Source: an uncultured Gammaproteobacteria bacterium (GTDB lineage: Bacteria; Pseudomonadota; Gammaproteobacteria; Steroidobacterales; Steroidobacteraceae). Taken from it: DNA of 64,000 nt. The stretch covers positions 122,001 through 186,000 of the forward strand of contig CAVOVV010000005.1 of assembly GCA_963699955.1 (NCBI GenBank), written 5' to 3'. Both the position numbers and the translations under genes were made by a program. Below are positions 44,842 to 48,074 of this stretch, piece after piece; the first letter of the stretch is position 1; each line of letters starts with the position of its first letter. The notes below the pieces were generated by a model. It was not told the origin of the DNA. It did no database searches and saw nothing but the letters and a program-made list of their open reading frames with translations.

Positions 44842-45618
44842 ATGAAAATCCTGATCAGCAACGACGATGGCTATCGATCGGAGGGTATTGCACGGCTGCG
44901 CGCCGCGCTCGCCGAGGTGGCCGACGTCACCGTGGTCGCGCCCGACCGGAACCGTAGCGGGGCGAGCAATTCGCTGACCCTCGATGTGCCGCTGCGGGTG
45001 ACGCAGTCCGAGCCCGGCGTGCACTACGTGACCGGGACGCCGACCGATTGCGTGCATCTTGCGGTCTCCGGACTGTTCGATTTTGATTTCGACATGGCCG
45101 TGAGCGGCGTCAACGATGGGCCCAATCTGGGCGACGACGTGCTGTATTCGGGCACCGTCGCGGCCGCCATCGAAGGCCGGTTTCTCGGTCTGCCCACCTT
45201 GGCGGTCTCGCTGTGCACCGAGCCCGGAGCCGCCCGGCACTTTGAGACCGGGGCGATCGTGGCGCAGCGAATCGTAACCCAGCTGCTTGGCCAGCCGCTC
45301 GATCCGCGCCTGATCCTGAATATCAACGTGCCCGATCTGCCCCTCGGGCAGCTGCGCGGGATCCGCGCCACGCGGCTGGGATTTCGGCACCGCTCGGAGC
45401 CGGCGGTCCCGGTGCGCAACCCGAAGGGCGAAACCATGTACTGGGTGGGTCCGTCGGGGGCGGGCGCGGACGCAGGCGAGGGCACGGATTTTCACGCGGT
45501 GGCCGAAGGCTGGGTGTCGGTGACGCCCCTGTCGATCGATCTGACGCGCCACGCCGCGCTGCCCGAGTTGGGCCAGTGGCTGGCCCGTGTGCCGTTGCTC
45601 GATACGGCCAAGAAGTAA
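44842..45618 (+). CDS. surE: 5'/3'-nucleotidase SurE
   Basis: [30 protein letters not shown]. Start at the internal ATG of the longer track ORF. Confidence 0.9.
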
Positions 45619-45629
45619 CGGGCCGCACG

Positions 45630-46292
45630 ATGACTGACCCACGCTTCACGGGTATTGGCATGACCTCGCTCCGCACCCGCGACCGGTTGGTGCAGCGGCT
45701 GCGTGACCAGGGCATCACCAATCTGACCGTGCTCGATCGGATTCGGAATCTCCCGCGCCATATTTTCGTCGACGAGGCGATCGCCAGCCGCGCCTATGAG
45801 GACACGGCTCTGCCCATCGGATTCGGCCAGACGATTTCGCAGCCGTTCATCGTGGCACGCATGACCGAGGCGCTGCTGGACGGTCCGCCTCTCAAGCGCT
45901 TGCTCGAAGTGGGCACGGGCTGCGGCTATCAGACCGCGGTGCTGGCGCCGCTGGTGGAGCGCATCTACAGCATCGAACGCATTGCGGGGCTGCAGCACCG
46001 GGCGCGACAGCGACTCAAGGAACTCGACGTGCGCAACGTGCGCTTCAAAGTGGGCGACGGCTCCATCGGCTGGCGGACCCAAGCGCCCTTTGACGGGATC
46101 ATCGTCGCGGCGGCGCCGCTAGTCGTGCCGGAAGAATTGATCGAGCAGCTCGCACCCAACGGTCGCCTGATCGTGCCCGCAGGTCCCGAGGGCAAACAGC
46201 AATTGCTGCGCATCGTGCGCCGGGAGCAGGGTCTGGAACGGCAGGTTCTGGGGTCGGTTTCCTTCGTTCCATTGGTCGGCGGGGTCGGTTAA
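45630..46292 (+). CDS. pcm: Protein-L-isoaspartate O-methyltransferase
   Basis: [30 protein letters not shown] motifs, and the surE-pcm pairing. Confidence 0.9.
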
Positions 46293-46358
46293 TGGCATCG
46301 AAACAAGATGAGTAATGGTCTATAACCTTATGATTTAGATATTATAACCTAATGGCAC

Positions 46359-46388
46359 TTGTCAAGCTTAGAAGTGCGCGACTAGTAT
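46359..46388 (+). promoter_or_regulatory. Candidate sigma70-like promoter (TTGTCA-18 nt-TAGTAT) inside the AT-rich intergenic island
   Basis: -35-like hexamer at 46359-46364 and -10-like hexamer at 46383-46388. It is preceded by two 12-nt direct repeats TATAACCT(T/A)ATG at 46321-46332 and 46343-46354. Confidence 0.35.
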
Positions 46389-46394
46389 CGGGCC

Positions 46395-46620
46395 CTGTCG
46401 GTCCGCACCGACAGCCTGCAAATCAAGGGTGCTCAGGCGCACAGGGAGAAGACACAGGGCAACAGGGGAAGAGCTGATTAGTCCACAGAAGAAGAAAAAC
46501 AGTCCGAAAAACAAAAACAAGGCAGTGACAATTATTCGATTCTGTCAGCTTCGGATAGTTGGTTGGTTGAGCGATCTTTCCGCCCTGTGTCTTCTTCCGG
46601 TGCGCTCTGGGCGCACCGGG
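46395..46620 (+). ncRNA. Candidate structured small RNA (family unknown; ends are approximate and the strand is inferred from the promoter-like element only)
   Basis: No credible ORF in the region. 8-bp hairpin at 46395-46414, a 24-bp long-range helix (46437-46460 / 46582-46605), an A-rich unpaired tract at 46485-46520, and a terminal 9-bp hairpin at 46597-46619. Confidence 0.3.
46437..46605. repeat. 24-nt inverted repeat pair flanking a 121-nt AT-rich core
   Basis: gcgcacagggagaagacacagggc (46437-46460) against gccctgtgtcttcttccggtgcgc (46582-46605). Hand alignment gives 22 Watson-Crick pairs, 1 G-T and 1 mismatch. Confidence 0.8.
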
Positions 46621-46640
46621 CCCCGCACCCCGCGGTCCTC

Positions 46641-47009
46641 TTAGGGGAACAGCCCGGCGACGACTTCACGCCGTTCCTGGGCCAGCACGTTGTAGGTACG
46701 GCAGGCCGCGCCGAGATCCATGAGCTCCAAGGCGATGCCGCGCGCTTCGAGCGCGCGCCGCAGCGCACCGCCGGCCGCCGGCACGACGCCATCGGCGCCG
46801 ATGAGCAGGACCTGCGGATGCAGCGCGAGGAGCGGCTCAAGCGCCGCCAGGTCCAGCGCCTGCGCGGATTGCACCGGCCAGTCCGTGATCAGGCGCGCGC
46901 TGCTGACGATGCAGGGTGCGCGGATCGTCTGCCCGCCAATGTTGATTTCGCCACGCGCGTACGAGCGCACGGTCAGTATTTGCGGATCGGAGTCGAGTAC
47001 CAGTCGCAC
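46641..47009 (-). CDS. Mth938-like (DUF498 / NDUFAF3-like) domain protein
   Basis: The C-terminal ~120 aa of the 258-aa track ORF look like this family (RLVLDSDPQILTVRSYARGEINIGG..LLIGADG..MDLGAACRTYNVLAQERREVV). GTG at 47009 is the only plausible in-frame start near the domain boundary. Confidence 0.65.
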   Translation of the reverse strand: MRLVLDSDPQILTVRSYARGEINIGGQTIRAPCIVSSARLITDWPVQSAQALDLAALEPLLALHPQVLLIGADGVVPAAGGALRRALEARGIALELMDLGAACRTYNVLAQERREVVAGLFP

Positions 47010-47027
47010 GGCCGTTACGATACCACC

Positions 47028-48074
47028 GTGCCTCGACTCATCCTTGTCCTCCGCGACCTGTACCCCGCGCGCCTGAGCGAGGCGGCGCGCGCCACGCTCC
47101 CTCGCCTGCCGGAACTCGAACGTTGGCTCGCGCAAGGGGAGACCGATCTGGCCGCCGGCGACTGGCGCCAGTGGCTGCAACGGGAAGCCCGCGGCCCCGC
47201 CGCTCGTGGGGTTCCGCCCGCATCGATCGCTGGCGCGGCGGTGTCGGGCGTGCCCGCGGGAGTGCCGGTGTGGTTTGCGAGCCCTATCCACTTGGTCGCC
47301 GGACTCGACACGGTGCGCGTGCATCCGGCCGGACTGCTGCAGCTGAGCAGCGAGGATCAGTGCCTGCTGGAGCGGGATTTCATGACCGTTTTTGCCCACT
47401 CGGGCTGGTCCCTGCACGCGACCGGCCGGCGTGAGCTGCTGCTGGCGGGAGGTCCAGCGCTCCAGCCGGACAGCGTGCGCAGCCAGGATCCGGCGCTATG
47501 GCTGGGAGCGGATCCGCGCGAAGGGCTGCCCGCCGGCCCGGCCGCGGGTACGCTGCGCCGCCTCGGCGCGGAAATGGAAATGTGGCTCCATGAGCACCCG
47601 ATCAACGAGGCGCGCCGCGCGCGTGGCACGCCGGCGGCCAACGCCGTGTGGATCTGGGGCGGGGGCCGCCCCGCGCTCTCGGTATCCGCGAACGCTGTGT
47701 CGAAGCCCAGCGGCGCTGCGGTAGCATGGGCCGACGACCTGTTCGTGGATGGACTGGCGCGGCTTGAGGGCTTCGCAGTCGGGCCGCTGCCGCCGCGCTG
47801 GCCGCCATCGACGAACGCGAATCGCGTGCCGGAGGCCGACGTGCTGGCAGTCTGCGGGTTGGGCGCCGATGCCAGTGAGACGGCTCTCGAGGGGCTGGAG
47901 CGCGACTGGGTCGCACCGGCGCTCGAGCACTGGCGAGCGGTGCAATGGCACAGCGCAACGCTCCTGGTCGGCGCGCGCGCCGTGACGCTCGCGCGCGGGC
48001 CGTGGCGCTCCCTGTGGCGCCGGTTCAGACGACCTCAACCCTGGTGGGAGACCTTGTTGCAGTGCTCACGGTAG
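47028..48074 (+). CDS. Conserved hypothetical protein, possibly an RpfE-type regulatory protein (recJ-linked)
   Basis: The GTG start gives VPRLILVLRDLYPARLSEAARATLPRLPELERWLA... The upstream part of the 503-aa track ORF is antisense to the Mth938-like gene. Its position immediately upstream of recJ-prfB-lysS recalls the Xanthomonas rpfE neighbourhood. The assignment is from memory. Confidence 0.5.
   Translation: MPRLILVLRDLYPARLSEAARATLPRLPELERWLAQGETDLAAGDWRQWLQREARGPAARGVPPASIAGAAVSGVPAGVPVWFASPIHLVAGLDTVRVHPAGLLQLSSEDQCLLERDFMTVFAHSGWSLHATGRRELLLAGGPALQPDSVRSQDPALWLGADPREGLPAGPAAGTLRRLGAEMEMWLHEHPINEARRARGTPAANAVWIWGGGRPALSVSANAVSKPSGAAVAWADDLFVDGLARLEGFAVGPLPPRWPPSTNANRVPEADVLAVCGLGADASETALEGLERDWVAPALEHWRAVQWHSATLLVGARAVTLARGPWRSLWRRFRRPQPWWETLLQCSR

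Follow-up and report, generated by a model that had tools for sequence, protein, structure and literature searches.

The spacer of 348 nt that lies between pcm and a convergent DUF498/Mth938-like gene, on a 64,000-nt stretch of DNA from an uncultured gammaproteobacterium of the Steroidobacteraceae (assembly GCA_963699955.1, contig CAVOVV010000005.1, positions 122,001 to 186,000; the window hereafter), has a G+C content of 51%, compared with 66% for the window, and harbors an element in which an earlier note, made from the letters alone, had recognized a long helix competing with a short hairpin (46437-46619). We find that the element is a gene on the plus strand, with a conserved promoter, a structure maintained by covariation, conserved synteny, one copy per examined stretch and a non-coding nature, and that it represents a well-supported, previously undescribed family of small RNAs (sRNAs) at a conserved Steroidobacteraceae locus. 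The following features, in window coordinates, make up the locus, with R standing for a purine, N for any base and MFE for minimum free energy:

45576-46292, plus strand: pcm, coding for protein-L-isoaspartate O-methyltransferase, the upstream neighbor (Pfam PF01135, E = 2.4e-57)
46359-46364, plus strand: sigma-70-type -35 element TTGTCA; CTTGTCAA is invariant in 13 close relatives
46383-46388, plus strand: -10 element TAGTAT; TAGTATC is invariant in 13 close relatives
46395-46414, plus strand: CTGTCGG-TCCGCA-CCGACAG, an inverted repeat located where transcription is predicted to start; 5′ stem-loop and/or DNA operator
46429-46472, plus strand: 5′ strand of the closing helix, from MFE and centroid folds, with the near-invariant core GAAGACACAGGG at 46448-46459
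46487-46499, plus strand: A-R-N repeat tract 1, AGAAGAAGAAAAA, unpaired, from column counts in 130 sequences
46510-46520, plus strand: A-A-N repeat tract 2, AACAAAAACAA = AANAANAANAA, unpaired, from column counts in 130 sequences
46531-46559, plus strand: inner hairpin, stem 46531-46538 with 46552-46559 and loop ATTCTGTCAGCTT at 46539-46551, from covariation
46559-46570, plus strand: G/U-rich strand TTGGTTGGTTGA, conserved in the alignment, 3′ side of the internal loop
46575-46614, plus strand: 3′ strand of the closing helix, from folds and covariation, with core CCCTGTGTCTTC at 46583-46594
46597-46619, strand not assigned: perfect 9-bp G+C-rich hairpin CCGGTGCGC-TCTGG-GCGCACCGG, sharing 46597-46605 with the closing helix
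46641-47030, minus strand: convergent DUF498/Mth938-like gene, stop codon at 46641-46643 (Pfam PF04430, E = 2e-23)

All of the pairings that had been described for the element are present at their original positions. A base-by-base check of the 24-bp duplex between 46437-46460 and 46582-46605 gave 22 Watson-Crick pairs, one G-U pair (G46446/T46596) and one mismatch (A46443/G46599); the 7-bp extension joins 46466-46472 to 46575-46581, with one G-U among its pairs; CCGGTGCGC (46597-46605) is perfectly complementary to GCGCACCGG (46611-46619) across the TCTGG loop; and ACAGGG occurs at 46441, 46454 and 46462, with only the middle occurrence falling inside the family-wide conserved core. The long helix runs further outward, with 46429-46442 pairing with 46600-46614, which engages the loop of the 9-bp hairpin together with some of its 3′ arm, so that the full closing helix (46429-46472 with 46575-46614) measures about 40 bp. 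With as many as 3 mismatches allowed, the 24-mer arm matches nowhere else in the 64-kb window (0 expected from 100 shuffles), and among non-palindromic inverted repeats within 400 nt, the arm pair ranks first in the window. The plus-strand fold has a free energy of -82.6 kcal/mol (z = -5.1 against 200 dinucleotide shuffles), compared with -71.5 kcal/mol (z = -3.7) for the minus strand of the same region. The claim that the two pairings compete holds insofar as segment 46597-46605 is indeed shared between them, but the two folds are not nearly isoenergetic: forcing the 9-bp hairpin on the plus-strand RNA costs about 8 kcal/mol relative to the long helix, and its equilibrium base-pair probability is close to 0. 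The hairpin is part of the minus-strand MFE structure and is absent from that of the plus strand. Its suggested role as a 3′-end structure for the Mth938-like gene on the minus strand is plausible in this respect; the stop codon of that gene lies 21 nt from the hairpin. As the earlier note also stated, no U-tract follows the 9-bp hairpin on either strand, and a scan of 46100-46900 yielded no terminator-like site.

To collect relatives, orthologous loci were fetched through Pcm, yielding 80 loci from Steroidobacteraceae/Woeseiaceae-like gammaproteobacteria, mostly metagenome-assembled genomes, with DNA covering only about 4 kb on either side of pcm, and metagenomic members were found with a pattern of three conserved 8-mers (24 nt fixed), yielding at least 120 soil-metagenome contig stretches; nhmmer likewise recovers the family. 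Comparisons across the family rest on 130 distinct sequences, including 27 genome-derived members found via Pcm, with some counts made on 127, 133, 115 or 69 members. The element is present just downstream of pcm in about 30 of the 80 pcm loci from Steroidobacteraceae-like genomes, and altogether about 130 distinct homologs from Steroidobacteraceae genomes and soil metagenomes occupy a constant neighborhood, with pcm (or nlpD) on one side and DUF498 on the other. On contigs extending sufficiently far, pcm is located upstream, and the end of the convergent DUF498 gene usually comes some tens of nucleotides past the element. Each of the at least 120 metagenomic stretches contains one match, and no contig appears twice among the matches listed. 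One copy per stretch in a constant neighborhood is indicative of an orthologous gene and not of a mobile repeat. A miniature inverted-repeat transposable element (MITE) or other dispersed repeat, which the earlier note had named as an alternative to a functional RNA, was accordingly rejected: the window and each of the at least 120 contig stretches hold a single copy at the same locus, the scan having covered contig stretches rather than whole genomes.

About nine loci have other DNA, 0.7-4.4 kb of it, between pcm and the element, indicating that the element stays with DUF498 rather than with pcm. The intervening DNA codes for NlpD (LysM and M23 peptidase domains) in L083 and L085, and for an open reading frame of about 1370 amino acids in L088 and L129. 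DUF498 is the most constant neighbor of the RNA gene, with a linkage tighter than that to pcm, and its stop codon lies 0-50 nt beyond the last helix of the RNA in relatives, apart from one subclade in which about 830 nt separate the element from DUF498. The occurrence of nlpD between pcm and the RNA gene in some relatives suggested an rsmZ-like synteny, which was rejected, as there is no Rsm-like feature. The most distant members, L065 (5426-5590), L071 (5429-5593), L070 and L054, have a pcm that is about 61-63% identical and carry the element about 770 nt beyond it; they preserve a compensated helix core (GAAGACGCG/CGCGTCTTC in the L065 group) and an A-A-N tract, and differ in the inner hairpin and its loop.

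Consensus folding was performed with RNAalifold on 29 and then on 130 sequences, and was checked by explicit pair counts, by controls in which the pairing partners were slid, and by 500 shuffles. Covariation supports pairing of 46436-46459 with 46583-46606 throughout the family: in the 130 sequences, 92.9% of cells are paired, as opposed to 41-50% with slid partners, the covariation score is 0.305, as opposed to 0.07-0.11, both-sided changes are seen in 23 of 36 pairs, and none of the 500 shuffles attains any of these observed values. Covariation is heavy in the outer part of the closing helix, where individual pairs are represented as CG 50 / GC 33 / GU 29, UA 35 / GC 33 / CG 26, or AU 62 / CG 46. 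In the inner hairpin, 97.9% of cells are paired, with many switches from G-U to A-U and both-sided changes in 4 of 8 pairs; its loop is kept in 26 of the 27 genome-derived members. In one relative, L020 (4806-5097), the inner hairpin is tandemly duplicated, and TTCGAGTCTGTCAGCTTCGAAC occurs twice at a distance of about 45 nt. The search for compensatory changes in orthologous regions, which had been proposed as a check, therefore came out clearly for the long helix, with many such changes arguing for a functional structured RNA.

The same alignment reveals the strand on which this structure is selected. In the closing helix and inner hairpin taken together, G-U pairs outnumber A-C combinations 429 to 27 over the 130 distinct sequences, and two adjacent positions of the inner hairpin would form A-C mismatches on the minus strand in more than half of the members. 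This asymmetry indicates selection on the plus strand, and on its account a minus-strand RNA was rejected.

The central 12 bp of the closing helix (GAAGACACAGGG/CCCUGUGUCUUC; 46448-46459 with 46583-46594) are nearly invariant, while the flanking parts of the helix covary. The three 8-mers are retained in 24-26 of the 27 genome-derived members, and the rare changes within the core, found in L028, L024, L027 and the distant L065 group, are compensatory. Such constancy suggests that the duplex may be recognized in a sequence-specific manner, or that there may be a second pairing partner.

Conservation upstream of the helix is consistent with a dedicated promoter. The TTGTCA-18-TAGTAT arrangement (46359-46388, plus strand) is the only promoter-like site in 46100-46900, and in 13 close relatives the AT-rich spacer around it drifts freely, with almost all of 46447-46605 being invariant in the same sequences. 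Family-wide, the promoter takes the form cTTGC, N17-18, and then TAACAT, TAGTAT or TACCAT, with -35 variants TTG(T/C)CA/TTGCNN and, among metagenomic members, TAACAT as the -10 element in 52/69, TAGTAT in 7/69 and TACCAT in 5/69. A sigma-54 promoter was considered for the TGGCAC-N-GC motif (GG-N10-GC) present in the window, and was discarded since the motif is not conserved in relatives. The inverted repeat at the predicted start shows some compensatory changes in close relatives (CTGTCTG/CAGACAG); across the family it reads CTGTC-N10-GACAG, with the ends conserved in sequence and the inner positions mostly unpaired, 77.6% of its cells being paired (helix 1). It begins 6-9 nt after the -10 element in most members, and only 0-1 nt after it in about 11 of 69. 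The repeat may therefore be a transcription-factor operator instead of, or in addition to, a stem-loop at the 5′ end of the RNA. Within the drifting AT-rich spacer, some 25 nt upstream of the -35 element, T(G/A)TAA-N5-TTGA(T/A) at 46321-46336 is conserved in the close clade of the window, and could possibly be an activator or UP-like site.

Two repeat tracts lie in the internal loop enclosed by the closing helix. Tract 1 conforms to A-A-N-A-R-N-A-R-N-A-A-N-A, with A at the A positions in 124-127 of the 130 sequences and all four bases at N, and tract 2 to A-A-N-A-A-N-A-A-N-A-A, with fully degenerate N; in its core, AANAANAA, A is found in 118-129 of the 130, and in 92 and 114 at the first two positions. 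Overall, the A or R positions are at least 95% conserved over the tracts, and both tracts are unpaired in MFE and consensus folds. A three-base periodicity could also come from codon wobble, and the window carries a 71-codon open frame through the region. However, the register between tracts 1 and 2 is 0, 1 and 2 modulo 3 in 47, 32 and 48 members, respectively, which shows that the A-A-N periodicity is not that of a reading frame; drift is also seen in the registers relative to the hairpin and the 3′ arm, the spacings between conserved blocks (34-41 and 71-91 nt) vary by non-multiples of 3, and an in-frame start codon, present in 51/127 members, is lacking in 76/127. On these grounds a small-protein gene was rejected. 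The periodicity is strict and local to each tract, and points to Hfq's distal face, which recognizes A-R-N in a tripartite manner; A-rich stretches of CrcZ titrate Hfq (PMC4063720). The abstracts of PMC8121710, PMC6422490 and PMC6239178 deal with this mode of recognition.

The remaining conserved unpaired parts of the loop region are the G/U-rich strand UUGGUUGGUUGA and the hairpin loop UCUGUCAGCU, neither of which has a conserved partner in most members. The strand at 46559-46570 is a candidate seed or protein contact. Sites complementary to either segment were not found above chance level in the 64-kb window, and no target can be proposed from them. The UUCGGAU loop sequence of the window, with its GGA, is UUCGAAU in most members. 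A role as a CsrA sponge, considered because ACAGGGA matches the CsrA consensus from in vitro selection (SELEX), was rejected, as the GGA and ACAGGG motifs are base-paired in the 5′ strand of the closing helix and are not conserved.

The 3′ hairpin is a less uniform feature of the family. Relatives often carry G+C-rich hairpins of differing sequence at the same place, and the outcome of a comparison with downstream-shuffled controls depends on how such hairpins are defined. Under a lax definition (at least 5 bp, at most -6 kcal/mol), overlap with the helix tail is seen in 82/133 members as opposed to 75.3 ± 4.8 in the controls, which is no excess, while overlapping tail structures at or below -14 kcal/mol occur in 56/133 as opposed to 33.6 ± 3.8, and at or below -18 kcal/mol in 33/133 as opposed to 13.9 ± 2.8. 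By these energy-thresholded counts, the mutually exclusive pairing that was first noticed in the window, with its duplicated partner motif, recurs in a substantial part of the family. In many members such hairpins are absent or do not overlap the helix, and in the largest subgroup, where ..GUGUCUUCUGCCGAUCAUCCUC precedes a small hairpin and this in turn the DUF498 stop, the hairpin comes after the helix and does not overlap it, as judged by eye from the fold listing. Whichever strand is considered, the stems of the tail hairpins consist almost entirely of Watson-Crick pairs, which one would expect of a structure that serves the two convergent transcripts alike, and they have no strand bias; the tail region as such folds better on the minus strand in 95 members and on the plus strand in 36. 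The 9-bp hairpin is likely to be a 3′-end or terminator-like structure common to the RNA gene and the convergent DUF498 gene. A U-rich stretch follows only about 5-10 of 115 tail hairpins. In L024, L082, L090, L097, L135 and L153, a run of 6-8 U is found directly after the closing helix, and in this small subclade the terminator stem may be the long helix itself.

We consider that these features are best interpreted as a stand-alone plus-strand sRNA gene whose product binds the RNA chaperone Hfq at its distal face and acts as a titrator or in a class-II-like manner, with the hairpin as a shared 3′ end, and we put the probability of this interpretation at about 55%. An RNA of about 220-230 nt, extending roughly from 46395 to 46615-46625, would be transcribed from its own sigma-70-type promoter; the closing helix would clamp both ends and present an internal loop with the two A-R-N/A-A-N tracts, the hairpin and the G/U-rich strand. 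The tracts would be bound by the distal face of Hfq, and the sRNA probably does bind Hfq. The RNA could then act as a CrcZ-like Hfq-titrating RNA or as a class-II-type, Hfq-dependent base-pairing sRNA, in which case the conserved loop and/or the G/U-rich strand might serve as the seed. On the plus-strand RNA, the 9-bp hairpin would form for a short time only, or if the 5′ arm is kept from pairing.

The closest functional analogs are the CrcZ-type Hfq titrators and the class II Hfq sRNAs, from both of which the family is set apart by homology, promoter type or the 3′ U-tail. It resembles CrcZ, CrcY and CrcX of Pseudomonas in being a non-coding, stable structured scaffold that displays several single-stranded A-A-N/A-R-N repeats (PMC4063720), but shows no sequence or covariance-model similarity to them, belongs to another lineage and neighborhood, has a 40-bp closing helix with an invariant core, and, with about 230 nt and two tracts, is smaller than CrcZ with its 407 nt and six. 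With the class II sRNAs ChiX, MgrR and CyaR, as described in the abstract of PMC6239178 and generally known, it shares an internal A-R-N motif for the distal face and conserved unpaired stretches as possible seeds; those sRNAs, however, are about 80-100 nt long and end in a Rho-independent terminator and a U-tail that serves the proximal face, which most members of the present family lack. Steroidobacteraceae are common in the sampled soil metagenomes, the RNA is lineage-wide among them, and our literature search yielded no earlier sRNA work on the lineage, nor anything relevant to the motif, to Steroidobacter sRNAs or to Hfq-dependent sRNAs of Xanthomonadales. Should the RNA titrate Hfq or make use of it, it would represent a post-transcriptional regulator of global reach beyond the enteric and pseudomonad models, and a natural case in which to study how the display of A-R-N, the sequence-invariant duplex and a 3′ end overlapping with a convergent gene act together. 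What is unusual is the clamp-like scaffold around a textbook Hfq distal-face motif; no new riboswitch class is added. The family is ready for inclusion in RNA family databases, which would improve the annotation of soil metagenomes.

Several observations weigh against this interpretation. In canonical Hfq-dependent sRNAs, as in intrinsic terminators, the 3′ end is a U-tail, and the window has none. The number of tracts and the sigma-70-type promoter are unlike those of CrcZ, the promoter of which is reported to be sigma-54/CbrB-dependent. Hfq binding does not account for the near-invariance of the central 12 bp, and in the metagenomic set this invariance is itself partly circular, since the search pattern fixed 24 nt. 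The failure to find target sites complementary to the loop or to the G/U-rich strand counts on the same side, as does the lack of confirmation from hfq or crc genes, none of which lies in the DNA fragments examined, a result that is uninformative in itself. Finally, overlapping stable 3′ hairpins are 1.7-2.4 times as frequent as in shuffled controls, an effect the size of which depends on the threshold, and such enrichment leaves some likelihood of a real bistable 3′ end.

Such a bistable end would operate as a terminator/antiterminator pair, the extended closing helix being the antiterminator and the local hairpin the terminator, with a factor on the purine-rich 5′ arm or on the A-R-N loop, for example Hfq, choosing between a stop at about 46620 and antisense read-through into DUF498. 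Segment 46597-46605 does pair both ways, the downstream sequence complements the helix tail beyond shuffles in a substantial part of the family, and, with the DUF498 stop codon 0-50 nt past the last helix, any read-through would be antisense. The long helix, however, is about 8 kcal/mol more stable and would zip up during transcription, no U-tract is present, the hairpins carry no plus-strand signature, they do not overlap the helix in the largest subgroup (by eye), and overlap under the lax criterion is not above chance; we regard this mechanism as unlikely. A version in which Hfq or the DUF498/Mth938-like product, by binding the A-R-N loop or the 5′ arm, sets the balance between release of the sRNA and antisense read-through into DUF498 is more doubtful still; if true, it would constitute a protein-sensing transcriptional switch within an sRNA gene, with the invariant 12-bp duplex as the specific recognition site. 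The riboswitch- or attenuator-like switch proposed at the outset is only partly upheld: the alternative pairings exist and are enriched, but control by a ligand or by attenuation is not indicated. No co-oriented gene is found downstream of the element, the next gene being convergent in the window and in relatives alike, which leaves riboswitch or attenuator control unsupported. In addition, there is no Rfam match, no U-tract and no ligand-pocket-like core, the conserved unpaired parts being A-A-N repeats, a hairpin loop and a G/U-rich strand, and the long helix prevails by about 8 kcal/mol. Antisense or processing control, which had been suggested together with the switch, may still apply.

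The invariance of the central 12 bp, with covarying flanks, would be more readily understood if the RNA were a scaffold for, or sequestered, a partner other than Hfq: a protein binding the GAAGACACAGGG/CCCUGUGUCUUC duplex, possibly the DUF498/Mth938-like protein, to which the linkage is tighter than to pcm, or RNA polymerase, for which it would be a 6S-like decoy. A closing stem that displays an internal loop is generally known from 6S, Y and Csr-type RNAs. Against this, even at E ≤ 10 there is no Rfam match to 6S, Y-RNA or any other such model, there is no symmetric central bubble, one subclade has about 830 nt between the RNA gene and DUF498, and the A-R-N signature is a specific pointer to Hfq; we also know of no RNA-binding role for DUF498, and see rather little chance that this is the function of the RNA. 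To take the structure for the 3′ untranslated or terminator region of the minus-strand DUF498 mRNA would agree with its position next to the DUF498 stop codon in most loci, with the 9-bp hairpin of the minus-strand MFE structure, and with the better folding of the tail on that strand (95 members vs 36). It would leave unexplained the ratio of 429 G-U to 27 A-C and the conserved plus-strand promoter, no reading of the A-A-N periodicity as N-U-U is known, and the asymmetry of the tail may just mirror base composition, which makes this origin highly improbable. We give hardly any credence to mobile or repeated DNA, such as a MITE or a repetitive extragenic palindromic (REP)-like inverted repeat, or to a small-protein gene, even though the 24-nt terminal inverted repeats around about 120 nt, the 71-codon frame and the period-3 A-rich tracts might each bring these to mind: the element is single-copy at a constant locus, its covariation is wobble-aware, its registers drift modulo 3, and 76 of 127 members have no in-frame start.

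As in attenuators and riboswitch expression platforms, one segment (46597-46605) has alternative partners upstream and downstream, but a co-oriented gene, a U-tract, an aptamer-like core and an Rfam match are all missing, and the “antiterminator” is about 8 kcal/mol more stable and requires no ligand. The RNA is similar to 6S RNA in its size (about 180-230 nt) and in that a long interrupted helix holds its ends together around an open interior, but there is no RF00013 match at E ≤ 10, and an asymmetric A-rich loop with a short hairpin takes the place of the promoter-like bubble between two helices. Its 3′ hairpin is G+C-rich, almost purely Watson-Crick and folds on both strands, as do bidirectional terminator-like hairpins between convergent genes, but it has no flanking A/U tracts and overlaps the functional closing helix of one transcript. 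For 6S RNA, a Csr/Rsm-type RNA, a MITE and a small-protein gene alike, a defining property is lacking.

At gathering thresholds, Rfam models have no match anywhere in the 64-kb window or in 15 related loci. When Rfam 15 was applied to the locus, and likewise to a distant member, at E ≤ 10, only sub-threshold matches to eukaryotic long non-coding RNA and microRNA-precursor models appeared, owing to the long hairpin shape. There are no tRNA or transfer-messenger RNA genes in the whole 64-kb window. Beyond the DUF498 gene, an open frame at 47100-48074 on the plus strand, located between that gene and recJ, has no Pfam match and overlaps several alternative frames, as is typical of high-G+C DNA.

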